Source of the DNA: Spirochaetia bacterium
Lineage (GTDB): Bacteria > Spirochaetota > Spirochaetia > SZUA-6 > Bin103
Length of the DNA stretch: 64,000 nucleotides
Assembly: GCA_965208575.1 (NCBI GenBank)
Contig: CBDBOV010000004.1
Span: forward strand, 416,001 to 480,000
Reading direction: 5' to 3'
Shown: positions 2,543 through 49,831 of the stretch, piece after piece
Numbering within the stretch: position 1 is the first letter of the stretch
How the letters are laid out: each line of letters opens with the position of its first letter
Notes under the pieces: model-generated
Database searches by the model: none
The model's input: the letters and a program-made list of their open reading frames with translations, nothing else
Told to the model about the DNA's origin: nothing
Translations under genes and position numbers: made by a program

Positions 2543-4585
2543 TTACTGGCGGATGAACCACTGCTCGGGGATGGTGTTGTTGAACCAGCGGCCCTCCGGC
2601 CACCACCAGTCCACGTCCGGCACGTTGACCAGGTCGTTGCGCACGATCACCGGGACGGGCGCCTGCGACACGGTGCCGATGCCGTACAGTTGCCGCACCA
2701 TCCTGGAGGAGTACTCGTTGCCGATGGCGGTCGACTCCGGCGTGAACAGCGGCGTCTGCAGGTAGCGGGTGAGCAGCGCGTAGATCTCCTGCACCTCCTG
2801 CGGCGGCACCACGCCGGATGCGCCACCCGACATCCACCAGTCGTCCCACCCGTGGTTGCTGACGTCGCCGGGCCGGAACTGGCCCGCCTCGCGCAGTGCG
2901 AAGCCCACGTCGGTGGTCAGGTGCGCGGGATGATGGGCCACCTGTACCTGGCCGGCGGCGTTGCGGGTCGAGTACAGCCGGTCCTCCTCCACCTTGAGCG
3001 TGATCTGCACGCCGACCGCCTCCCAGTACTCCTTGACCAGTTCGAAGATCGGCTTGCGGTCGCCGCGGTCGTAGTACTCCAGCAGCAGGCTGAGGGTTTC
3101 ACCATCGGGACGGGTGCGCCACTGGCGATTCGCGTCCCAGGCCAACCCGATCTCGTCGAGCAGCGCATTGGCCTGGTCGACGTCGTACTCTGCGAAATGG
3201 GCGGTCATCCACGGCTCGTGGTAGGTGGCCAGCGGCGGCGGCGCCACCTGGCTGGTGACGGCACGCCCGAAGAACACCAAGTCGTTGATCTCGTCGCGGT
3301 TGATGGCCAGCGACATCGCCTGCCGGAAGCGCAGGTCCCGGAACAGGTCGCGCAGCACCGTATCCTCTTCGTAGAGCTGGTTGAAGGCGAACCGCATCTC
3401 GTTCCCCACCGGGGAATTCCACAGCAGCGCCCGGTACCCGCCCTGGTGCTCGTTCTCCTTGTACAGCGTCCAGTTCTTGAGTTGCAGGTGGGCCCGCCCG
3501 GTGTGAAACTCGCCGGCGATGGTCTTCAACTCCGCGACGTCGCGGCTCTCGACCAGAATGCGCGCCATGCTGTCCATGTACGGAAGCTGGCGGCCGGCGG
3601 TGTCGACCTTCCAGTAGTAGGGATTGCGGTGGAAGAAGCGGCTGCCGAATTCATCTTCACGCGCCAGGTCCCAACCCTCGATGGTGGGAAAGTCGAGGTC
3701 GTTGCGGTCGTCCGACTGGCCGGCGAGAATCGCCAGGAAGTGCTGCGTCCAGCCCTCGAAGCCGGCCGCCTTGGCGTTCGCCTCGGCGTCGTCGTTGTAG
3801 TCGGCGTGGAACCGGCTCAGGTAGTGCTTGGGAGTGACCGGGAAGGTCGACCGGCTGCGGGCATAGGGAGAGAATGCGATCTTGTCCACCACGATCGGGT
3901 ACGGCACCGCAAACTGCATACGTACCGTGGTGTCGTTCACCTTGGTCACCGTCATCGGCGTGCCGCCCGGCTTCCAGGCCACGTTGATCGCCTGGCTGAG
4001 ATTCTCGTTGGTGGCGTAGTCCTCCCACCAGAACAGGAAGTCGTCGGCCGTGAACGGCGCGCCGTCGCTCCACTTCATGTTGTTGCGCAGCGTCAGGGTG
4101 AGGGTCTTGAAATCCTCGGTCAGGTCCCAGTCGAGCACCACGTTGGGAATGGTGGCATCGATCTCCGGGCTCACCGTGAGCAGGTTCTGGAAGCGCGTGA
4201 ACATCACTTCGAAGTCGCCGCAGCAGCCGGGCGTGATGGTTGCCGCGCGATACTCGCCGCCGTACACCCCCATCTCGTCGAGCGGGTCGACCACCACCAC
4301 CTCGTCCGGCAGGCGATCTTCGACCGGCGGCAGGTCGCCCGCGGCCACCATCGCGGCCAGCACCGGCGCTTCCGTGAACGCCGGCAGGTTGTTGCCGGTG
4401 TCGGCCTCGAAGGCCGCCTGCGATCCCCACACCACGGTGCGTCCCGGCACCAGCACCTCCAGGTCGGATGCCGCCGCCGTGCCCGCCTGCGAACCGGACT
4501 GCTCCTCGTCACCGGATCCGAACGCGGTGCCGGCTACGAGCAGCGCCAACCCCACCGCCAGTGCGAATCGAACAATCAGTGTCAC
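2543..4585 (-). CDS. ABC transporter substrate-binding protein, family 5
   Basis: GTG start with GGAGG RBS; signal peptide; EAPVL..GDLPPVEDRLP, KWSDGAPFTADD, RNPYYWKVD, FRQAMSLAINR. Confidence 0.93.
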   Translation of the reverse strand: MTLIVRFALAVGLALLVAGTAFGSGDEEQSGSQAGTAAASDLEVLVPGRTVVWGSQAAFEADTGNNLPAFTEAPVLAAMVAAGDLPPVEDRLPDEVVVVDPLDEMGVYGGEYRAATITPGCCGDFEVMFTRFQNLLTVSPEIDATIPNVVLDWDLTEDFKTLTLTLRNNMKWSDGAPFTADDFLFWWEDYATNENLSQAINVAWKPGGTPMTVTKVNDTTVRMQFAVPYPIVVDKIAFSPYARSRSTFPVTPKHYLSRFHADYNDDAEANAKAAGFEGWTQHFLAILAGQSDDRNDLDFPTIEGWDLAREDEFGSRFFHRNPYYWKVDTAGRQLPYMDSMARILVESRDVAELKTIAGEFHTGRAHLQLKNWTLYKENEHQGGYRALLWNSPVGNEMRFAFNQLYEEDTVLRDLFRDLRFRQAMSLAINRDEINDLVFFGRAVTSQVAPPPLATYHEPWMTAHFAEYDVDQANALLDEIGLAWDANRQWRTRPDGETLSLLLEYYDRGDRKPIFELVKEYWEAVGVQITLKVEEDRLYSTRNAAGQVQVAHHPAHLTTDVGFALREAGQFRPGDVSNHGWDDWWMSGGASGVVPPQEVQEIYALLTRYLQTPLFTPESTAIGNEYSSRMVRQLYGIGTVSQAPVPVIVRNDLVNVPDVDWWWPEGRWFNNTIPEQWFIRQ

Positions 4586-4842
4586 CTTTGTACCTCCAGG
4601 AGCGACGCACGTGTGGCGCATCACGATGACCGACGCCACGTCCGTCCACTGTTGTCCGCGATGGTAGAGGCCACCCGGGCAGCGGTCAAGCCGGCTGACC
4701 GGAACGGCCGAAGCTGAGCCGAGCCACCTGGGCTCCGTCGCCGCAGCGGCCCGGGGCCGCGCATCCCACCGGGACACACAGCCACGACTGACTGACGACA
4801 CGCGCGCAGGTGTGACCCCATTTTGTGGATAGTAGGAAGACG

Positions 4843-4889: not shown

Positions 4890-5082
4890 AAACAAAATGA
4901 GTGAGGAATTGGTGACTCGATTCGTCGAGTATGTCAAGGCCGGACACGGCGCTGATGGTGGCGGTGGTGCCAGATCGGGAGCGTGCGCGATGCTGCGCCT
5001 GGAGGGACGGGACGCTCCTGCACAGCGACTTAGATTCGGGGGGCTCGCCAGCTCCAACTGGCGAGTTCCGTGCCGCTTTCCC

Positions 5083-6006
5083 CTACTCTACCACCTTTCG
5101 GCGGGGACCGTAAGGTCCCCTCGGACCCGGCTTCGGCGTCCGGGCGTCGATCAACTCGACCACTTCGCGCGCCGTCCACCGCTGCCGCGCCACGCCGGCC
5201 GCCATCGCCGGCGTGGTGCCCGTGCCCCACTTCTTCTTCAGGCTCATGTGCGGCCGGCAGAAATTGTAGGCCATCGACCACATGGCGAAGCTGTGCACAT
5301 GGTTCTCCAGCTTCTTGGAGAAGGCGTTGGTCAGCCGCGTGAACCGCCGCTGTGACATGCGGATGGTCAGGTTCTGCCGCTCCGCGTAACTCGTGCTGAT
5401 CAGGTCCAGGTTCGGCGCGCCCTGCACGATGATCCGCTCCACCCCGTTGCACTCGCCGGGGCTGTACCGCCGGTGCGCGGCGGTGGCTTCCTCGCCGTCG
5501 CCCTTCGAGGTGCCGTAGTGCTTCACCAGCATGGCATAGTCCACGTCCCCCGCGAATGCCGCGTCCACGGCCTCCAGGTACGCCGAGTGCCCGTCCGTGG
5601 TGAGCTGCACCCGGTTCCGTAGCCGCTGCTCCAGGTCGATCATGAACGGGATCGCCGTCTGCGCCGAGCGATCGCCGACGATCCATGACGCCAGCAGCTT
5701 CGTGTGCGCGCACAGCGCCGTCCACGTCCACACGTCTCCGGCACCCCGCGGCGGGTTCTTCGCCCGCTCCACGTTCTTGTTCTTCGCGTAGATGAACGAC
5801 CAGATTTCGTCGATCTCCAAGCGGGAGCACGGCAGGTTGCGCAGCACCTCGTCCTGGTACTCTGCGCAGATCGGGCCGGCGTCTCTGATGAACTTCCCTA
5901 CCGTGTGCTTCGCGCAGCCGACGATACGCATGGTGGCGGCCATGCTGTTCCCCTCGACCAGGAGCTGGTACATAAGTGCCCTGCGTTCGATAGGTAACTT
6001 GTTCAT
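5083..6006 (-). CDS. IS1-family-like DDE transposase
   Basis: N-terminal HTH (LVEGNSM), DEIWSF, TTDGH.AY, STSYAERQNLTIRM..RRFTRLTNAFSKK, TPAMAAG, KPGPRGPY. Confidence 0.88.
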   Translation of the reverse strand: MNKLPIERRALMYQLLVEGNSMAATMRIVGCAKHTVGKFIRDAGPICAEYQDEVLRNLPCSRLEIDEIWSFIYAKNKNVERAKNPPRGAGDVWTWTALCAHTKLLASWIVGDRSAQTAIPFMIDLEQRLRNRVQLTTDGHSAYLEAVDAAFAGDVDYAMLVKHYGTSKGDGEEATAAHRRYSPGECNGVERIIVQGAPNLDLISTSYAERQNLTIRMSQRRFTRLTNAFSKKLENHVHSFAMWSMAYNFCRPHMSLKKKWGTGTTPAMAAGVARQRWTAREVVELIDARTPKPGPRGPYGPRRKVVE

Positions 6007-42072: not shown

Positions 42073-42225
42073 CGCGACCCGTAGTGTACTGCGCCACGAC
42101 GCCGTTGATAAGCCCGCCACCTCCGATGCTCTGTCCGCCGGCGCAACCGCGCCGACCGCCACGGCGCCCGTCGGCATGGAACAGGGCGCCTGTTGCGATA
42201 TATTGCTCATCCCAGACGGACAACG

Positions 42226-43566
42226 ATGCCGAACACCATCCTCGCAACCATAGACCGGCTCAAACGGGAACTCGACGCGTTGCTGCCGCTGCCGCCGGAG
42301 GTGGCGGGCCGGGTCGAGCAGAAACTGAGAATCGAGTCCAACTATCACTCCAACGCGCTCGAAGGCAACACCCTCACGCTGGCGGAGACCCGCAGCCTGT
42401 TGCTGCACGGCCTTACGGCGCGCGGCAAACCGATGCGCGAACACGTCGACATCGAGGGCTACGACCGGGCAGTCAAGGAACTCACGCGCATGGCCAGCGA
42501 AGGGCAGCCGCTGAGCGAGTCTTTCATCCGCAACCTGCACCGCGTGCTGCTCAAGGAACCCTACGAAGTCGAAACCGTCGCCGACGATGGCAGAAACACG
42601 CGCCGGCCCATCGCCGTCGGCGCTTACAAGAGCGCCGCCAACAACGTCGTGACCTCCACCGGGGAAACCTACTATTTCACGCCGCCGGAACAGGTCCCGT
42701 ACGCGATGCGCGAACTGGTCGACTGGTACCATGCGCAGGAAGCTCAGGGCGAGCATCCGATCATCATCGCGGCGATCTTCCACTACCGGTTCGTCCGCAT
42801 CCATCCGTTCGACGATGGCAATGGTCGCATGGCGCGCCTGCTGATGAACCGGATCCTGCTGGAGCACGGCTATCCCCTTGCCATCGTCCACCGAGACAAC
42901 CGGGACCGCTACCTGCAGGAACTCGAACGCGCCGACCACACCGAAGACCCCGGCCAGTTCATCGACTACATCGCGTCCTGCTGCGAGTATCCCCTCAACC
43001 TCTACCTGCGCGCCGCCCGCGGCGAGCCGATCGAAGACAGCGACGAAATCGACCGCGAGATCGCGATGTTCCGGCAGGCGCTCGTCGATGGTGATGGAAC
43101 CCCGGATCACGTGCATCTGAGGCGGCACGTGACCGACGTCGTGCTGCCGTTCCATTCCTACTGCCGGACGAAGTTCCTGGCACTTACCTGCGACCTGTTC
43201 AGCCCGGGTGCGGAGTCGCTGCCGCAGATTTCCGGACACAACGCCGACGGCCGCCATTTTCGCGTCGCGCGGGCCACGGTGGCCGACCGGGTCCCCGAAC
43301 AGGCATCCGACGCAGCCATCGAATTCGGCTTCTCCTGCGTCGACTTCAAGGACACCGATTGGTCGATTACCACGGTCATCAGGAACACGCTCAGGCGGCG
43401 CCAGTGCGAGTGGGAACTGCTGATCTTCTACGTCTCGCCCGCCGCCAGCGACTTCTCCACGCGGTGCGAGAGCGCCGACCTCGACCAGTTGCGCCATGCA
43501 TTCAACCGGCTGCTGCGAGACATGATGAGAACCATCGACCAATGGGACTCGCAGGCCGAGAGCTGA
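42226..43566 (+). CDS. Fic-family protein with N-terminal autoinhibitory motif
   Basis: HPFDDGNGRMAR; SNALEGN. Confidence 0.93.
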   Translation: MPNTILATIDRLKRELDALLPLPPEVAGRVEQKLRIESNYHSNALEGNTLTLAETRSLLLHGLTARGKPMREHVDIEGYDRAVKELTRMASEGQPLSESFIRNLHRVLLKEPYEVETVADDGRNTRRPIAVGAYKSAANNVVTSTGETYYFTPPEQVPYAMRELVDWYHAQEAQGEHPIIIAAIFHYRFVRIHPFDDGNGRMARLLMNRILLEHGYPLAIVHRDNRDRYLQELERADHTEDPGQFIDYIASCCEYPLNLYLRAARGEPIEDSDEIDREIAMFRQALVDGDGTPDHVHLRRHVTDVVLPFHSYCRTKFLALTCDLFSPGAESLPQISGHNADGRHFRVARATVADRVPEQASDAAIEFGFSCVDFKDTDWSITTVIRNTLRRRQCEWELLIFYVSPAASDFSTRCESADLDQLRHAFNRLLRDMMRTIDQWDSQAES

Positions 43567-43577
43567 CCTTCGGAGCG

Positions 43578-44735
43578 CTACTGCGCCAGCGTCCCACGAC
43601 CGAGGCGGCGTACGAACTCGGCGGCGGGGAGGATGTCGATGCCGTCGTCGGTGCGGCGGGCGCGCGGTTCCAGGCAGACGACGATGCGCCGGCGAACGGC
43701 GGGATGCTCTTCGGCGAGCGTGCGCAGACCGCGCAGGTGGTCGCGGGTGATGCGGGCGCTCGCCTTTGCCTCCACCGCCAGCTCCATGTCGCCGAGCACG
43801 AAGTCCACCTCGATGCCGCTCGGCAGCCGCCAGTAGGCCAGGTCGAGGTCCCAATCGTGGTACTCGATACCGGCGGACAGCTCGTGAAAGACCCAGTTCT
43901 CGAACGCCTTCCCGTACAGCGGGGCTCCGGGAGTCAGCTCGCCGCGCCGGGTCAAGCGGTTCACCACCCCCACGTCGGCGAAGTAGAACTTCGGGGCACC
44001 GATCACACGGCGCTTGCGCCGCCGGCGGTATGCGTTCAGCCGGCGCCCGAGCAGCGTGTCTTCCAGAATCTCGAAGTATGCCTTGGCAGTGGGGCTCGAC
44101 ACCCCGCACTCGCGTGCGACGTTGGAGAAGTTGACCATCTCCCCGTCGCTGAGTGCGGCGGCGTCCAGGAAGCCGGAAAACGCCGGCAGGTTGCGGACCA
44201 GACCCTCGGCGGCGACCTCCTCGCGCAGGTAGTCGGCGACGTAGGCGTCGAGCAGCCGGCGCGCGCGAGCCGCCTGGTAGATGCGCGGCAGGTAACCGTG
44301 GTTCAGCATCCGGTCCAGGTCGAAGGCGGCGCCCAGTTCGGCGGCGGTGAGACCGCGCAGCTCGTAGCGTACGGCCCGCCCGCCGAGCAAGTTGGCGGCA
44401 CCGCGGCGCACCTTGCGGGCGCTCGATCCGCACAGGGCAAAGTGGTGACCGCGATTCTCGATCAGCCAGTGCACCTCGTCGAGCAGCGCCGGCACCTTCT
44501 GCACCTCGTCGATCACGACCTGCCGCCCGGCGTGCGCCGGCTCCGATGCCAACTCCTCGCGCAGCAGCTCGGGTCGATCGAGGTACCGGCGGAACACCTC
44601 GCTCTTCAGCAGGTCGACCCAGAGCGCATCGGGGTAGTGGCGCCTGAGCAAGGTGCTCTTGCCGGCCTGCCGCGGCCCCCACAGAAAGAAGGTCTCGCGA
44701 CCCGACTCCGGAAGAATCAGCGATCGTTCGAACAT
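43578..44735 (-). CDS. AAA_14 ATPase with DUF4143 domain
   Basis: GPRQAGKST, IDEVQK, CGSS, PKFYFADVG, EVDFV..AVEAK. Confidence 0.92.
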   Translation of the reverse strand: MFERSLILPESGRETFFLWGPRQAGKSTLLRRHYPDALWVDLLKSEVFRRYLDRPELLREELASEPAHAGRQVVIDEVQKVPALLDEVHWLIENRGHHFALCGSSARKVRRGAANLLGGRAVRYELRGLTAAELGAAFDLDRMLNHGYLPRIYQAARARRLLDAYVADYLREEVAAEGLVRNLPAFSGFLDAAALSDGEMVNFSNVARECGVSSPTAKAYFEILEDTLLGRRLNAYRRRRKRRVIGAPKFYFADVGVVNRLTRRGELTPGAPLYGKAFENWVFHELSAGIEYHDWDLDLAYWRLPSGIEVDFVLGDMELAVEAKASARITRDHLRGLRTLAEEHPAVRRRIVVCLEPRARRTDDGIDILPAAEFVRRLGRGTLAQ

Positions 44736-44775
44736 GTACTTTAAGATATCATGATAATTTGAAGTACAACATTGG

Positions 44776-45138
44776 CTAGCGGATGTAGTAGCCGGACACC
44801 CGCCACGCTTCGCTGTCCCACATGACGGTGACGGTCTCCACCGCGTTCTTCTTGTTGGCATAGGAGGCTTCGAAGCGAAGGACCCAGTAGCGGCCATCGG
44901 GAGCACCGGGAAGTGTCTCGTGATACTCGGCCGCTGCCACGGAGCGGGACACAAGCCTGCCCATCGGCTCGAGCGCGCCCCGGAGCGCTTGAGCAAGCTG
45001 CTCCTCGGTCACGGCTCCGCGCATCAGCCCGGCCGCGGTCGACCAGCAGGCCGGGTACCCGCCGGCATCGAGCAGACCCAGCCACGCCTGCGCGGCTCCC
45101 AAGGCCTCGTCCCGCTCAGCCACGGGAACACCACCCAC
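44776..45138 (-). CDS. DUF4019-domain protein
   Basis: AQAWL.LLDAG.Y, LPGAPDG.Y, AVETVT, WRVSGYYIR. Confidence 0.85.
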   Translation of the reverse strand: MGGVPVAERDEALGAAQAWLGLLDAGGYPACWSTAAGLMRGAVTEEQLAQALRGALEPMGRLVSRSVAAAEYHETLPGAPDGRYWVLRFEASYANKKNAVETVTVMWDSEAWRVSGYYIR

Positions 45139-45360
45139 GGCAAGCCTGCCCGTCGCCCCCTGTCATCCCGTGAACAGTCTACCCGATTTGTCCACTTCAC
45201 CGCGCAAGCACAGCCCTCCACGCAGCGCCGGCGATGAATTCAGAACTCATTGGTTCAGGTGGTGGCCGTTCGTGGCCCACAATCCGTATATTGAGACCGT
45301 TCGTTCCAGAAATCGTCCGTCCGAGTACGACGGATCCAACGCAGCAACATGGAGTGACTG

Positions 45361-45897
45361 ATGCCGACCGAACAGAACAAGCTTTACCTCTACGAGGCGC
45401 TGGAGTTGCGGGCCGAATACGACGCCCGCATCAAGACCTTCCGCGACTGCCTGCCGGAGACGCGCAGGAACCGGGACCGCCTCGGCATGTACCGCGGTGA
45501 CGAGGGGCAGCTTCGCGCCGCTGACGACTTCGACGTGGCGGCAGTGCAGAAGTCGCTACATTCGCTGGAGCACAAGCGGCGCAAGCTCAACAACGCCATC
45601 CAGCGCGCCAACTACGCCCACACCGTGAGCGCCGGCGGCGAGACGCTTGACTTGAGCGAAGCACTCGAGTTGCGCAAGGGCCTGTCCGACCGCATCGGTG
45701 AGCTGCACACCCAGGGCGTGCAGTCCGCCTACGTGCGCGTCATCTACAAGGAAGACCGCGACATCGTGGAGCCCAACGAAGACACCTTCGCCGCGAGTAT
45801 CGAGCGCTTGGAGTCGGCGCGCCGGGCATTCCGAGACTTGAACCGTGCCCTGCGCGCGGCAAGCTTCACGGTGGTGGTCGACTTCGCGGACGAGTAG
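45361..45897 (+). CDS. DIP1984-like (so-called septicolysin-like) helical protein
   Basis: Two-fold internal repeat LYEALELRAEYDARI / LSEALELRKGLSDRI, each followed by a coiled coil ending I/L..A; GGAG RBS. Confidence 0.7.
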   Translation: MPTEQNKLYLYEALELRAEYDARIKTFRDCLPETRRNRDRLGMYRGDEGQLRAADDFDVAAVQKSLHSLEHKRRKLNNAIQRANYAHTVSAGGETLDLSEALELRKGLSDRIGELHTQGVQSAYVRVIYKEDRDIVEPNEDTFAASIERLESARRAFRDLNRALRAASFTVVVDFADE

Positions 45898-45914
45898 CGC
45901 GAGCCAACAAACAA

Positions 45915-46119
45915 GAGCAGGAGACGGGGGAGTAAGTGCGAGTCTCCCGGCGACGGGAGCGTAGCCCAGTGGATCGGCGACTGCGACAGCGATAAACCTG
46001 CGGTTTGAAACGCCATAGTTCCCGGCGAAGCCCGGCAGCCAGGCAGTATCTCAGCGTCACAGCAAGCACAGCCCGACAGCGAGTCAGCATCATGACTCCG
46101 AGTCTCCTGCTCCTTTCTT
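45915..46119 (+). ncRNA. Candidate structured ncRNA with a periodic CAGY tract
   Basis: 11-bp closing stem GAGCAGGAGAC/GTCTCCTGCTC, GNRA hairpin CTCCCG-GCGA-CGGGAG, seven CAGY motifs at 8-9 nt spacing, pyrimidine tail. Confidence 0.65.
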
Positions 46120-47172
46120 GGTACCGCCTCGGCACGATGCAACGAGGTCGGATCGGGAGGCGATCAGCCGCTGCAACCGGTCGCGCACACGCGAGCTGCA
46201 GAACGATGCCCGGACCGCGGCGCAAGTGAACCCGCGCAACTCCGCGGCGGAGAATCCGAGCTTCGCGGCGATCGCGTACTCGCGCCCGATGGTGGTGCAA
46301 GCGCGCACCGGATCGTCGGTACAGATCGCCACCGGTACCCCGCGTTCCACGAACCGGCGTATGGGATGGCACTCGTAGCTCTCCACCGCGCCGAGCACCA
46401 CGTTGCTGGTAAGTGCGCACTCGATGGTCACGCCGCGGGCGGCGATCCGGTCGAGCAGGCGCGGGTCGGCGGAGGCGGCGAGCGCATGGCCGATGCGCGT
46501 CAGGCCGGGCACGTCAAGTGCCTCCGCCAAGTGCAGCGCGCAGAACTCGCCCGCGTGGGCGGCGATGCCCAATCCGGCGTCGCGTGCCCGTCCGGCCCAG
46601 CGGTGTACCACCGACCAGTCTGCCGGTTGGTCGTAGGGCACCGGCAGGATGTTCAGCCCGGCCAGGCCGCTCCGGGCAGCGGCCAGGCAGCGCGGCAACA
46701 AGGTGGCGGCCCACTCGTCGGTAACCGGCGCTACCACTAGCGGTACCGCGTGGAATCGCGGATAGCGGTCACGCACGGCGGCCAGGGACGTCGCGAACTT
46801 GTCAAGGAAGTCGTCGCGCAGGATGGTCCGGGCGCCGAACATCACTTCGACCAGGAGAGCGCCGTCTTTCGCTGCTTCGACCAGGACGCGGCAGATACGG
46901 GTTTCGAGATGGTCCTGGTTGCCGTCCACCTCGTCCACCCAGGAACGGGGATACGGCAGGTCGGGGGTCCACGTCTCCAGGCGTGCCATGCCCGGCGCCC
47001 GGTCGCGCATCAGTTCCCGCGCCTTGACCCGCCAGTCGGTGCCGCGTCGCCCGGTGCGCTGCGCGAGCACCTGCTCCAGGCGCGCGCCCGATTCGGCGTG
47101 CACGTGGATGTCCGCCTTCGGCAACGCCGCGATTGCAGGAGCGATCCGGACATCGGAAAGCGGCTCAATCAT
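46090..47172 (-). CDS. Adenosine deaminase-family amidohydrolase
   Basis: LPKADIHVH, AHAGE, RIGH, SNV.LG, TDDP. Confidence 0.88.
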   Translation of the reverse strand: MIEPLSDVRIAPAIAALPKADIHVHAESGARLEQVLAQRTGRRGTDWRVKARELMRDRAPGMARLETWTPDLPYPRSWVDEVDGNQDHLETRICRVLVEAAKDGALLVEVMFGARTILRDDFLDKFATSLAAVRDRYPRFHAVPLVVAPVTDEWAATLLPRCLAAARSGLAGLNILPVPYDQPADWSVVHRWAGRARDAGLGIAAHAGEFCALHLAEALDVPGLTRIGHALAASADPRLLDRIAARGVTIECALTSNVVLGAVESYECHPIRRFVERGVPVAICTDDPVRACTTIGREYAIAAKLGFSAAELRGFTCAAVRASFCSSRVRDRLQRLIASRSDLVASCRGGTKKGAGDSES

Positions 47173-47759
47173 AGGGCCCGGAGCACGCGAGAGCCGAGGG
47201 AGGTCAGAGTGTAGCCGGTGTCGTGGCTGATGGTGAGGCCGAGGGCCTTCAACTTGCGCACGTTGCTCTTGAAGGGAGCAGTTTCCCGCCCAAGCTGCGG
47301 CGCCAGCCGGGAGGCCGCCACCCGGGGATGGGCGTCGATCAGGGCCAGCGTGGCGCCGGTCCACGGGCCCGCGCGGCTGCGGGCGTCCATGTTGCGCAGC
47401 CGGGCCAGCAGGTCTTGCAGCACGTCCTCGGCGACGTCGGCAGACACGTCAGCCACCGGGGTGCGCGGGTCGGGAAGGTAGCGAAACCGAATCTCGAACA
47501 CGGTGTCGGGATGATGACCGGCGCCCGCCGGGGAAAGCTGCCGCAACAGGGCGTCCCGAGACGCGAACCCGGACGCGCGCGCCGCGGCATCGGTGATCTG
47601 CGCCACGGGCGCTTCGCGCACGTGGTCCACCGCGACCACGCCGTCGGCGTTGAGCCGGTACCGGTTGCCCACCTTCACGCGGGCGCGCTTCCAGGCCCGG
47701 TACGTGACAGTGATCGCACCGTTCGCTATCGGTTCGTGAAACGAGTATTTGAAGAGCAC
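47169..47759 (-). CDS. ASCH/PUA-like domain protein with C-terminal wHTH-like region
   Basis: MLFK....I..G.ITVTYRAW.RARVKVG, A.ASGF; FKSNVRKLKALGLT.S...GY.LT. Confidence 0.75.
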   Translation of the reverse strand: MLFKYSFHEPIANGAITVTYRAWKRARVKVGNRYRLNADGVVAVDHVREAPVAQITDAAARASGFASRDALLRQLSPAGAGHHPDTVFEIRFRYLPDPRTPVADVSADVAEDVLQDLLARLRNMDARSRAGPWTGATLALIDAHPRVAASRLAPQLGRETAPFKSNVRKLKALGLTISHDTGYTLTSLGSRVLRAL

Positions 47760-48163
47760 GGCGGCTATCGCCACCGGATCGACCGGAGCCGACCGGCTTG
47801 GCTTCCAGACTCGAATCTTAAGCCATGCCGGCGCGACATGCGAGCGGCGGATGGCGGGACTGGCGGCCGGGTACGAACGCCGAACGCGCTACTTCGGACC
47901 CAAGTGGTTAGCGTGCGAGGCAGCCCCGCGGACCGACAGATCGCGAACAAGAAATCGAAAAAAAATCGTGCGTACCCCTTGACACGATTCTCGGTGCTCG
48001 TGGTGGCTCGCCACGGCGCGCGGCGGCCCCTCCGACGCTCCGAGAGTGACTCGGTCTCCGTGGACGCAACAGCGCCCCGCTCAGCGGCCTTATGGGCGCC
48101 GTTTCAGCGCTGTCGAGGACTCGGAAGATTCGGTTATTTCTAATCCCATGGTATACTTACGGT

Positions 48164-49831
48164 ATGGATACCGTGCCCTCTCCCGCCCTCTGGTCCACCG
48201 TCGCCGCGCTCCCCGACTACCTCCTCCTGAGGCAGACTCGGCAGCTCGCCCGGCACGAGCAGGCGCTGCAGATCCTGGTCCTCGACCACCTTCGCGAGAT
48301 CGAGGTGCGCAGCCTGCACCTGACCCGCGGCTACGGGAGCCTGTTCGACTACGTGGTGCACGAACTGGGCTACACCGCGGCCGCCGCCTGGCGGCGCATC
48401 AAGGCGATGCGGTTGTGCAGCCAGACCAGCGGCGCGCGCGAACTGCTGCAGGACGGCTCGCTGAACCTGAGCAACGCGGCCCAACTGCAGAACCTGTTCG
48501 AGCGCAGCGACCGCGGCCACGGCCGCCCGCCGGGCGGTGAGGCAACGGGTAGCGGGCCGGGCGGGGAGCGGCAGAGTGACGGCGCACCGGGGGAACCGGT
48601 GTCGGCGACACCGATGCGCACCGGGGAGCGCGATCCGGCACCGGTAGCCGGACCGGTGCTGGACGCCGCGGCGCGGGAGCAGTTGGTCAAGCAGGCCGCG
48701 GGCAAGAGCACGCGCGAACTGCAGCAGATGCTGGCCGACGTGGATCCGGAGTTGGCGCAGCCGAGCGACCGGATGCGCGCGCTCGGGAGCGGGCGCTGGG
48801 AGCTGAAGGCGACGATCGACGCGGAATGCCGGCATGGGCTGGAGAAGCTGCAGATGTTGCTGTCACACCAGGACCCGCAACTGACGCTGGGTGGGCTGGT
48901 GGCGCGGTTGGTGCGGGACGGCCTGGACCGCTACGACCCGGCGCGTCCGCGGCGCGCGCGGCGCACCGGCGGTCGCGGCTCGGAAGTGGGAGAGCGAACC
49001 GAGAGCACGCCGGCGCGGCACGACACGGCGGCGGTGCAGCGGAGCACGGCCCGCGCGAAGGGAGGCGAAGTCGAACGCCGGAGCGAGGCCGCGCAGGATG
49101 GCGCATCGCCCGCGGCGGCCGTTCCGAATTGCGTGCCCGGTCTCTCGGCGGCGAAGCGGCAGACGGAGAACGAACGCGGCAGCACGAAGTCCACGGCGGT
49201 GCGGGGTCTTGTCCACCGCTCAGATTCGGCGGCGAAGCGCCGCTCGGAAGTTGAGCACGGCAACGCCGCAACCGCGACGTCACCGCGCAGCGGCGGGGAC
49301 ACCGCTTCGCCGGCGAAGCGCCACGGGCAAGCCGAACTCGGCAGCACGTCGCGTGCGCCGGCGCGGGACAGCGGCGGTCGGACCACTTCGGCGGCGAAGC
49401 GTCCTACGGAGGCCGAGCGCGGCAGCACGAAGTCCGCGCCGTGGCGGGACGGCGGCGAGCGCACCACTTCGGCGGCGAAGCGGCTTGCATACGGCGACCA
49501 GTATGGCACAGTTGGGCCGGCGGAGCGTTCGTCGGCCCTGGAGCGGCACCTCGCCGCGTTGAGCTGCTTCAGCACGCTGCCGGGCTCCCGGTCACGGTAT
49601 ATCCCGGCCGCCGTGAGGCGGGAGGTGTGGCGGCGCGACCAGGGTTGTTGCAGCTATGTCGACCGCCACAGCGGCCGGCGCTGCGGTTCTCGCTATCGGC
49701 TGGAGATCGACCACATCGTGCCGTTCGCGCTCGGCGGCGCTACCGAGCTGCTCAATCTCAGGCTCCGCTGCAAAGCCCACCACAGGTTGCGCCACGCTCA
49801 GCGCCACCCCAACGCGGGGAGTGGGCCGTAG
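48164..49831 (+). CDS. HNH endonuclease with DUF222-like N-terminus and repeat linker
   Basis: HLREIE...GYGSLFDY....LGY....A.RRI.AMRL; C-term RDQGCC..C....LEIDHIVP...GG.....NLRLRC..HH. Confidence 0.88.
   Translation: MDTVPSPALWSTVAALPDYLLLRQTRQLARHEQALQILVLDHLREIEVRSLHLTRGYGSLFDYVVHELGYTAAAAWRRIKAMRLCSQTSGARELLQDGSLNLSNAAQLQNLFERSDRGHGRPPGGEATGSGPGGERQSDGAPGEPVSATPMRTGERDPAPVAGPVLDAAAREQLVKQAAGKSTRELQQMLADVDPELAQPSDRMRALGSGRWELKATIDAECRHGLEKLQMLLSHQDPQLTLGGLVARLVRDGLDRYDPARPRRARRTGGRGSEVGERTESTPARHDTAAVQRSTARAKGGEVERRSEAAQDGASPAAAVPNCVPGLSAAKRQTENERGSTKSTAVRGLVHRSDSAAKRRSEVEHGNAATATSPRSGGDTASPAKRHGQAELGSTSRAPARDSGGRTTSAAKRPTEAERGSTKSAPWRDGGERTTSAAKRLAYGDQYGTVGPAERSSALERHLAALSCFSTLPGSRSRYIPAAVRREVWRRDQGCCSYVDRHSGRRCGSRYRLEIDHIVPFALGGATELLNLRLRCKAHHRLRHAQRHPNAGSGP
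49145..49483 (+). repeat. In-frame 81-bp (27-aa) degenerate tandem repeats
   Basis: TCGSCGGCGAAGCG (S-A/P-A-K-R) at 49145, 49226, 49307, 49388 and 49469. Confidence 0.9.

Follow-up and report, generated by a model that had tools for sequence, protein, structure and literature searches.

A conserved pair of a predicted DIP1984-fold protein gene and a structured RNA with a periodic A-N-C lattice: a candidate ribonucleoprotein module

We analysed a 64,000-nucleotide (nt) stretch of contig CBDBOV010000004.1 from a Spirochaetia bacterium assembly (GCA_965208575.1), here called the window, and in it a locus at 45361-46119 where a gene for a protein of 178 amino acids (aa) is directly followed by a structured RNA. 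A sequence-only reading of the window had proposed this locus as a two-part module, a DIP1984-like protein with a noncoding RNA bearing a row of periodic short motifs. Comparison with relatives showed that the element belongs to a structured RNA family of about 185 nt, absent from Rfam 15 and tightly tied to one protein subfamily, in which a triplet, A-N-C, recurs about every 8 nt along a mostly unpaired tail.

The gene and the RNA element in the window

The features of the locus are the following.

45361-45897, plus strand: gene of the 178-aa protein with predicted DIP1984 fold, from the list of open reading frames (ORFs); stop codon TAG at 45895-45897
45915-46112, plus strand: whole structured RNA, including both strands of P1; 198 nt long in the window, and typically 175-207 nt in the family
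45915-45925, plus strand: P1 5' strand, GAGCAGGAGAC, in perfect pairing with GTCTCCTGCTC at 46102-46112
45929-45933, plus strand: P1b 5' strand, GGAGU (GGAGT in the DNA), pairing with ACUCC at 46095-46099
45944-45959, plus strand: hairpin P2, CTCCCG-GCGA-CGGGAG, with the GNRA tetraloop GCGA at 45950-45953
45962-45993, plus strand: conserved UAGCCCAG, pseudoknot a and hairpin b; register in the window read by eye
45967-45969 with 45981-45983, plus strand: pseudoknot a, CAG with CUG; helix 6 of the covariation analysis
45973-45976 with 45990-45993, plus strand: hairpin b, AUCG with CGAU; helix 7 of the covariation analysis
46007-46021, plus strand: hairpin d, GAA/UUC in the window and GACG/CGUC in most relatives
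46022-46031, plus strand: conserved CCGG-N-AAGC, directly 3' of hairpin d
46026-46093, plus strand: A/C-rich tail of about 65 nt, mostly unpaired, with the A-N-C lattice
46095-46112, plus strand: 3' strands of P1b (46095-46099) and P1 (46102-46112), pairing with the 5' strands
46113-46119, plus strand: CUUUCUU, a U-rich run just past P1, in the region where the transcript probably ends

The 11-bp closing stem, its GGAGT/ACTCC extension, the CTTTCTT run behind it and the GNRA-capped hairpin at 45944-45959 had all been picked out by the sequence-only reading, and each is present where it had been placed. P1 encloses about 176 nt, and a perfect stem of at least 11 bp was found in none of 300 dinucleotide shuffles of 45898-46125, the maximum being 10 bp in four of them. 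The folding energy of the single sequence is ordinary (z = -1.17 on the plus strand and -1.48 on the minus strand), so that the window sequence alone would not convince, and the strong evidence for the RNA is comparative and not drawn from single-sequence folding. A covariance model built from 49 sequences (R1) matched the window at 45917-46112 with 119.6 bits (E = 1.3e-35). In Rfam 15 the only match to 44500-47500 was sul1 on the minus strand, at 17.1 bits against a gathering threshold of 36.2 (E = 6.3), and five representative loci gave no match at E <= 1. A literature search, which did not cover supplementary files, found no description of the RNA or of the protein-RNA pairing; the earlier impression that the pairing was undescribed agrees with both the Rfam scan and the papers.

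The protein gene has a GGAG ribosome-binding site about 8 nt 5' of its start, and 17 nt separate its TAG stop from the closing stem of the RNA. The AlphaFold2 model of the protein (pLDDT, the predicted local distance difference test score, 87.8) contains two repeats, each with a helical hairpin and a beta-hairpin, and the two halves of the sequence also align with each other (28% identity over 82 residues, E = 0.002), in keeping with the two-fold internal repeat that had been proposed. The sole clear structural relative of the model is 3KDQ, an uncharacterised DIP1984 protein, as shown by VIA-align (Z 12.8, root-mean-square deviation 3.3, 152 of 152 target residues, next entry at Z 8.8) and Foldseek (E = 8.9e-5, template-modelling scores 0.66 and 0.76, with an overall range of 0.66-0.78). 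By its predicted structure, the protein has the DIP1984/DUF6847 fold, in line with the name given to it from the letters alone. The sequence matches to the family models are borderline: Pfam DUF6847 (PF20935) scores 26.3 bits against a cut-off of 27 and over residues 6-86 only, NCBIfam DIP1984_fam (NF038048) scores 30.5 bits against a cut-off of 70 and over the N-terminal half only, and profile comparison with the 3KDQ sequence gives E = 0.17. Most homologues carry a precomputed PF20935 label.

A word-indexed search returned 639 homologues at E <= 0.001, and among the 120 best listed nearly all are 177-181 aa long and about 60% identical. An exhaustive profile search of 1.84 billion representatives grouped the protein into 204 clusters at 50% identity; long fused forms were absent among its 150 best matches, the longest of which has 244 aa. 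By these sequence searches the family is small and tight. Alignment of 28 homologues contains 46 invariant columns, 15 of which hold Arg or Lys, a composition that would fit nucleic-acid binding without proving it. The sole notable PHROG match of the protein is a family of unknown function. In the passages of PMC10889530 and PMC5559437 that mention the DIP1984/DUF6847 family, it figures in annotations alone, for example as 'DIP1984 family protein', with 'septicolysin' as a legacy label on Acinetobacter plasmids, and those passages give no tested function.

Linkage of gene and RNA, and evidence for the structure

The full-length protein is present in 9 of 60 related genomes (77-92% identity), where the 200 nt downstream, directly after the gene, are 75-97% identical at the nucleotide level. 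Whole-genome RNA scans of 61 relatives gave strong matches (at least 120 bits) once each in these 9 protein-bearing genomes and in G000 itself; beyond these, they found one strong orphan (G041) and three weak remnants. Sequences of the sister genus resemble the window from the ATG (45361) up to 46110-46119, which reproduces the limits first proposed for the module, and within the genus the genes 3' of it differ or are displaced by insertions. Taken together, the shared boundaries and the differing flanks indicate that gene and RNA behave as one unit. In the genus members that have no module (G009, G010), the flanking genes are not found in synteny either, and no insertion boundaries can be read from them for this reason.

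A scan with one genome per species found 79 loci with the protein. By depositors' titles the carriers are Latescibacterota, Desulfobacterota, Chloroflexi-type, Spirochaetia-labelled, Verrucomicrobiota/Victivallales, Acidobacteriota, Nitrospirota and other metagenome-assembled genomes (MAGs), together with a few archaeal MAGs and Candidatus Uabimicrobium. The distribution is patchy: besides the 9 of 60 relatives, the protein occurs in 3 of 301 genomes of the phylum of locus L102, two of these matches being fragments. Linkage was counted over 68 loci whose protein match is close to full length, the 11 partial-match loci being left out; in 64 of these 68, a complete element with matching 5' and 3' signatures lies 3' of the stop codon. 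In the other four, the element is cut off by the contig end (L049), lacks its 5' part (L068 and L069) or is degenerate (L083). The 5' motif begins 1-31 nt past the stop in all loci but two (62 and 164 nt), and elements measure 175-207 nt (median 182). R1 gave 81 matches in 79 of 86 sources, all on the strand of the gene and downstream of it.

Starting from the RNA, we also queried metagenome contigs with a 21-nt motif; it matched at least 118 stretches, of which 80 were analysed. Where at least 560 nt of upstream sequence were available, the protein gene lies directly upstream in 62 of 65 loci, and where less was available a partial gene is seen in 12 of 15; across the 74 loci with an adjacent full or partial gene, 8-43 nt separate the last aligned residue from the motif. 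At 19 canonical DUF6847 loci of the same phylum R1 gave no match above 4.3 bits with filters off, so the RNA belongs to this protein subfamily only.

Some copies depart from the one-gene, one-RNA arrangement. In G041 (L107:1640-1890, G041:C105) the RNA is intact at 166 bits and the gene is an 11-codon stub, MPDERGKLKNN*, the RNA being an orphan left by internal deletion of the protein gene; a small ribbon-helix-helix-like ORF adjoins it on the other strand. Three metagenome loci (L134, L188, L207) likewise have the RNA and no protein gene. Locus L084 (Candidatus Uabimicrobium sp. HlEnr_7, the sole record among the loci examined that is not a MAG) has three tandem RNA copies (4523-4707, 5068-5257 and 5284-5471, 108-117 bits each) behind a single gene, tblastn finding no second protein copy there. 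Decay is seen in G005 (L018, G005:C2:418280-418509), which retains only the final 39 codons of the gene and 90 nt at the 3' end of the RNA, and in a second decayed copy, that of G021.

Covariation was examined in a model-based alignment of 81 sequences, 80 of them distinct (A4). Across the proposed helices 91.3% of cells are paired versus 77.8% in shuffles, and 26 of 34 pairs have changes on both sides. The covariation score is 0.381 versus 0.139 in shuffled alignments, none of 500 shuffles reaching the observed value, and it falls to at most 0.099 when the partners are slid by 1-3 columns. P1 (7 pairs) has 96% of cells paired, with two pairs changing on both sides from A-U in the genus of the window to G-C in the sister genus; its core of 6 pairs is canonical in 49 of 49 MAFFT-aligned sequences. 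P1b (5 pairs) has 99.5% of cells paired with both-sided changes at 4 of the 5, and is also canonical in 49 of 49 sequences of the plain MAFFT alignment. Thus the covarying closing stem that the sequence-only reading had asked to be looked for among homologues is there. P2 (7 pairs) is paired in 94-98% of cells with up to six pair types, and its loop is GNRA in 76 of 76 rows. The three pairs of pseudoknot a are paired throughout (100%), with CAG/CUG replaced by CGG/CCG or AAG/CUU. Hairpin b has 82% of cells paired with compensatory changes, and hairpin d 76%, all 4 of its pairs with both-sided changes. Helices a and d were absent from the aligning model, plain MAFFT alignment yields the same helices as the model-based one, and RNAalifold independently returned P1, P1b, P2, P3, b and d, leaving the tail open.

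A 9-nt direct repeat, CGAGTCTCC, occurs in the window at 45939-45947 and 46099-46107. The P1 5' strand is complementary to either copy, each of which has C in place of T in the sister genus, and the repeat permits an alternative, lineage-specific pairing of GGAGAC with either copy. We rejected a conserved pairing switch, since the T to C change is also accounted for by P2 pairing and, in other clades, the 5' strand of P2 shows no relation to the 3' strand of P1.

G-U pairs outnumber A-C pairs (97 versus 40 overall, 56 versus 3 in P2), which places the RNA on the plus strand. In any frame at most 17 of 73 elements are open, and element lengths are evenly distributed modulo 3; the element is therefore not coding, and its coding potential, which the sequence-only reading had already denied for the periodic region, was rejected. 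The terminal inverted repeats around some 175 nt do resemble a small mobile element, and one could suppose a feature of the DNA itself, such as a miniature inverted-repeat element, a recombination site or a chance palindrome. The region is single-copy in the 6.5-Mb assembly (other matches reach at most 36.5 bits over at most 33 nt), and a repeat or mobile element was rejected on this count; moreover, the element always stands in one orientation behind the same gene, its internal helices carry compensatory changes, the G-U over A-C asymmetry and the invariant GNRA loop are those of an RNA, and an RNA library contains it. We regard an element acting at the DNA level as practically excluded.

Outside the helices, the RNA consensus has strongly conserved unpaired nucleotides, AAGUGCGA, UAGCCCAG and CCGG-N-AAAGC. 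Stretches of this kind are typical of catalytic or ligand-binding cores and, together with the intact orphan copies, they could point to an RNA with an activity of its own, as a ribozyme, a ligand sensor or the partner of a host factor, for which the protein would be an accessory or a fellow traveller. We regard this as very unlikely in view of a linkage of 95% from the RNA side and 94% from the protein side, the restriction of the RNA to this subfamily to the exclusion of the 19 canonical DUF6847 genes, and a lattice motif that differs in one divergent branch of the protein, as described below.

Part of the stretch was found in six sequencing runs. In the metatranscriptome run X2, a 188-nt contig covers 45915-46100 at a depth of 23.5, and the coding region is represented by a contig of 151 nt at a depth of 2.1; run X1, from another study and with an RNA status that was guessed, holds a 183-nt contig on 45925-46107. 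DNA runs extend past both element ends. Apart from the coding-region contig of X2, neither X1 nor X2 covers the window outside the element, a gap that does not count as evidence of absence. A U-rich stretch, with T at 6 or more of the 14 positions beyond the conserved 3' motif, follows in 78 of 121 elements, so that a terminator-like role for P1 is possible, though not a canonical one; a pattern scan of 45050-46300 (hairpin loop of 3-8 nt plus U run) found no canonical terminator site. The element might be a cis-acting part of the 3' untranslated region (UTR), protecting or terminating the messenger or serving as operator for autoregulation by the protein, with no separate stable ribonucleoprotein. 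Its position 1-31 nt after the stop leaves no room for a promoter of its own, a pattern scan of 45050-46300 found no promoter-like site, and the U-rich run after P1 would suit such a role. We nevertheless consider it quite unlikely, as a core that combines a pseudoknot and a GNRA loop with invariant unpaired stretches and an eight-site lattice goes far beyond what stability or termination needs, orphan and tandem copies of the RNA exist, and the element-sized contigs stand at about ten times the depth of the coding contig, a weak indication from the metatranscriptome.

The A-N-C lattice and the proposed ribonucleoprotein

In the window the tail carries CAGY at 46036, 46044, 46052, 46060, 46069, 46077 and 46085. 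Read as triplets, the lattice has AGC at 46029, 46037, 46053, 46061, 46070, 46078 and 46086, and AGU at 46045. The window tail as a whole contains 8 AGC with 4 successive spacings of 7-9 nt (shuffle mean 0.98, P = 0.012). The lattice was then followed in 123 unique elements anchored at the 3' strand of P1b; these are related sequences and the counts are not independent trials. Right-anchored in this way, A-N-C peaks at -63, -55, -48, -41, -33, -24, -16 and -8. In strict register it occupies 588 of 984 site positions, versus 21-133 at registers shifted by 1-4 nt, and with +/-2 nt allowed 825 of 984, versus 277 of 984 at a half-period shift. By type, AGC occurs 552 times, AAC 165, ACC 79 and AUC 29. 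Between successive AGC, a spacing of 8 nt is seen 161 times (3.1 expected), one of 9 nt 44 times, and one of 15-17 nt 165 times. A makes up 41% of the tail and C 25%, and the linkers between lattice sites vary freely while the lattice is kept across phyla. The row of motifs listed by the sequence-only reading thus has the positions and the periodicity it was credited with, and a check for periodic motifs in homologues finds the lattice kept in the 123 elements; what does not hold is CAGY as the conserved unit, which is A-N-C, mostly AGC.

A divergent branch, made of L102 (4535-4746) and the orphan L134, has UAC or GAC about every 7 nt instead of AGC every 8. The L102 protein is 33% identical, and its RNA has nine UAC/GAC lattice sites. 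With two members at hand, the branch hints that the lattice motif may co-vary with the protein.

We lean, by a small step, towards the reading that gene and RNA make a dedicated ribonucleoprotein in which copies or repeats of the protein sit on the lattice, as the sequences suggest. Gene and RNA would be co-transcribed, the RNA lying directly 3', and the RNA would then be released or stabilised as a discrete species and form a ribonucleoprotein with the neighbouring protein. Its folded core (P2, pseudoknot, hairpins and invariant unpaired stretches) would confer specificity, and the lattice would act as a multi-site platform on which several of the two-repeat proteins, rich in basic residues, could line up. 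If each repeat, or each subunit, took one site, an RNA would carry 4 or 8 proteins. Physical binding, stoichiometry and the cellular role of the module are all inferred at present.

Several observations weigh against this proposal. P1, P1b, P2 and b were part of the aligning model, so that their pairing counts lean towards the structure, and P3 (AGCCC with GGGCU) has no both-sided change; both P3 and a second pseudoknot, c, are unproven. The X1 and X2 contigs each differ from the window at 10 positions (about 95% alike) and so come from a relative; they give a weak hint of the element building up as a separate RNA species. No RNA of this kind accompanies the 19 canonical DUF6847 genes, and the pairing is hence not a general trait of the fold. 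Four copies of the RNA without a protein gene mean that the RNA may work, or persist, alone, and in L069 an apparently whole protein gene stands before an RNA whose 5' half is missing.

A more far-reaching version would see here a class of ribonucleoproteins in which the core is the specificity handle, the eight-site row is a ruler counting DIP1984 repeats, motif and period co-evolve with the protein, and the whole moves horizontally as a self-contained unit, for example a toxin held by RNA or a defence switch of an uncatalogued type. We offer it tentatively, as a possibility that we would rather doubt than assert.

Neighbouring genes and comparison with known systems

The other annotated features near the module in the window are listed here.

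42193-43566, plus strand: Fic-domain protein gene
44776-45138, minus strand: DUF4019 protein gene
47169-47774, minus strand: ASCH-domain protein gene
48092-49831, plus strand: long ORF with an HNH-like C-terminus, judged by eye only

In addition, an adenosine-deaminase-like ORF (Pfam A_deaminase, E = 6e-34) lies on the minus strand at 46090-47172 and converges on the module; as it ends at 46090, it overlaps the last 23 bases of the element. The ORF adjoins the module in G000 and G006 only; in G003 and G007, insertions of about 250-530 nt separate it from the module. A gene for an ATPase with AAA_14 and DUF4143 domains is near the module in the window (43578-44996, minus strand) and in L028, L051, L070, L098 and L102; as these genomes have several copies of the gene (G009 and G010 show 7-8 matches each), its position near the module may be fortuitous. 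In five MAGs of Planctomycetes-Verrucomicrobia-Chlamydiae (PVC) type (L077, L079, L081, L090, L094), an XRE-type helix-turn-helix (HTH) gene stands upstream in operon-like fashion, and a conserved protein of about 375 aa without family match starts 20-45 nt past the RNA.

Across loci, 204 neighbouring ORFs fell into 152 clusters, and neither a universal partner gene nor a conserved defence neighbour was found among them. The commonest Pfam families of the 96 nearest neighbours are HTH_31 (6), HTH_3 (5) and PIN (3), and the toxin-antitoxin or mobile ones are PIN (3), UPF0175 (2), AbiEii (1) and IS200 transposase (2). This leads to the question of a toxin neutralised by RNA, or an abortive-infection module, resembling type III toxin-antitoxin systems: the protein would be harmful when free, the RNA would sequester it, and decay of the RNA or phage interference would free it. 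Such a unit would be expected to spread patchily, as seen here with about 60% protein identity across phyla and archaeal MAGs included; the flanks vary, some neighbours are of toxin-antitoxin or mobile type, and decayed copies occur in G005 and G021. G041, which keeps the RNA after loss of the gene, is as expected if losing the antidote first is lethal, and the three tandem RNAs behind one gene in L084 can be counted on the same side. On the contrary, L069 keeps its protein gene although the RNA is broken, the genes around the module are mostly ordinary or unrelated, and the protein has no match in PADLOC, plasmids, phages or IMG/VR. Its helical DIP1984-like fold is not that of a ToxN/AbiQ-type nuclease, no ToxN/AbiQ/CptN/TenpN-type endoribonuclease match being found in it by Pfam, NCBIfam or PADLOC, and the RNA comes after the gene instead of before it, with no tandem array of processed units. 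The hallmarks of known type III systems are missing, the type III or defence role that the sequence-only reading had floated has no direct support, and we hold a toxin module of this kind to be unlikely.

The structured RNA family described here covaries strongly, contains a pseudoknot, has an invariant GNRA loop and is absent from Rfam 15, and it is tied to the DIP1984/DUF6847 fold, which has had a solved structure (PDB 3KDQ) since 2009 but no tested function. If the more far-reaching version above is true, it would give the DIP1984 fold its first function. An eight-site lattice at 8 nt is a rare and testable design, which predicts a defined protein:RNA stoichiometry and offers a handle for mutation, and the module, being small (about 760 bp), self-contained and present across many phyla, could be moved into a laboratory host in one piece. 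Were it an RNA-controlled toxin or defence unit, the range of protein-RNA conflict systems would be wider, and as a scaffold it would show RNA-templated protein assembly occurring in nature.

By the usual definitions of these systems the module is outside the known type III families and TRAP, and it belongs to no Rfam family. Type III toxin-antitoxin systems (ToxIN, CptIN, TenpIN) resemble it in that a gene and an adjacent dedicated RNA are inherited together, with a patchy, transfer-like spread, and an RNA of repeated elements could neutralise several copies of the protein. In the known systems the RNA lies upstream as tandem repeats of about 36 nt and is cut by a ToxN-type endoribonuclease, whereas here a single RNA of about 185 nt lies downstream without long tandem repeats, next to a protein of another fold and without PADLOC match. 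A repeat finder returned only short two-copy repeats in the window, the periodicity being that of a 3-nt motif on an 8-nt lattice.

CsrA/RsmE and their sponge RNAs CsrB/RsmZ are alike in using many short motifs to hold several small proteins. Their GGA motifs sit in hairpin loops, the RNA genes lie away from csrA, and the protein fold differs from the DIP1984-like one. Ro60 (Rsr) with its Y RNA (YrlA) is, as generally described, also a sporadic protein with a structured partner RNA encoded beside it; here there is no TROVE domain by Pfam, no tRNA-like module and no match to a Y RNA of Rfam.

A further parallel in design is TRAP, again as generally described, an oligomer that reads a row of short triplets with variable spacers in single-stranded RNA, as the protein studied here putatively would. 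TRAP is an 11-subunit beta-wheel that binds (G/U)AG triplets with 2-3 nt spacers in a 5' leader, for attenuation control of trp in Bacillus. In contrast, the protein of the present module, which has no Pfam match to TrpBP/TRAP, has a predicted helical DIP1984-like fold, and the A-N-C triplets come about every 8 nt, in a row inside a closed RNA 3' of its own gene. By predicted fold the protein belongs with DIP1984/DUF6847 (3KDQ); set against the canonical members, to which its sequence match is borderline, this subfamily is about 25 aa longer and alone carries the RNA.

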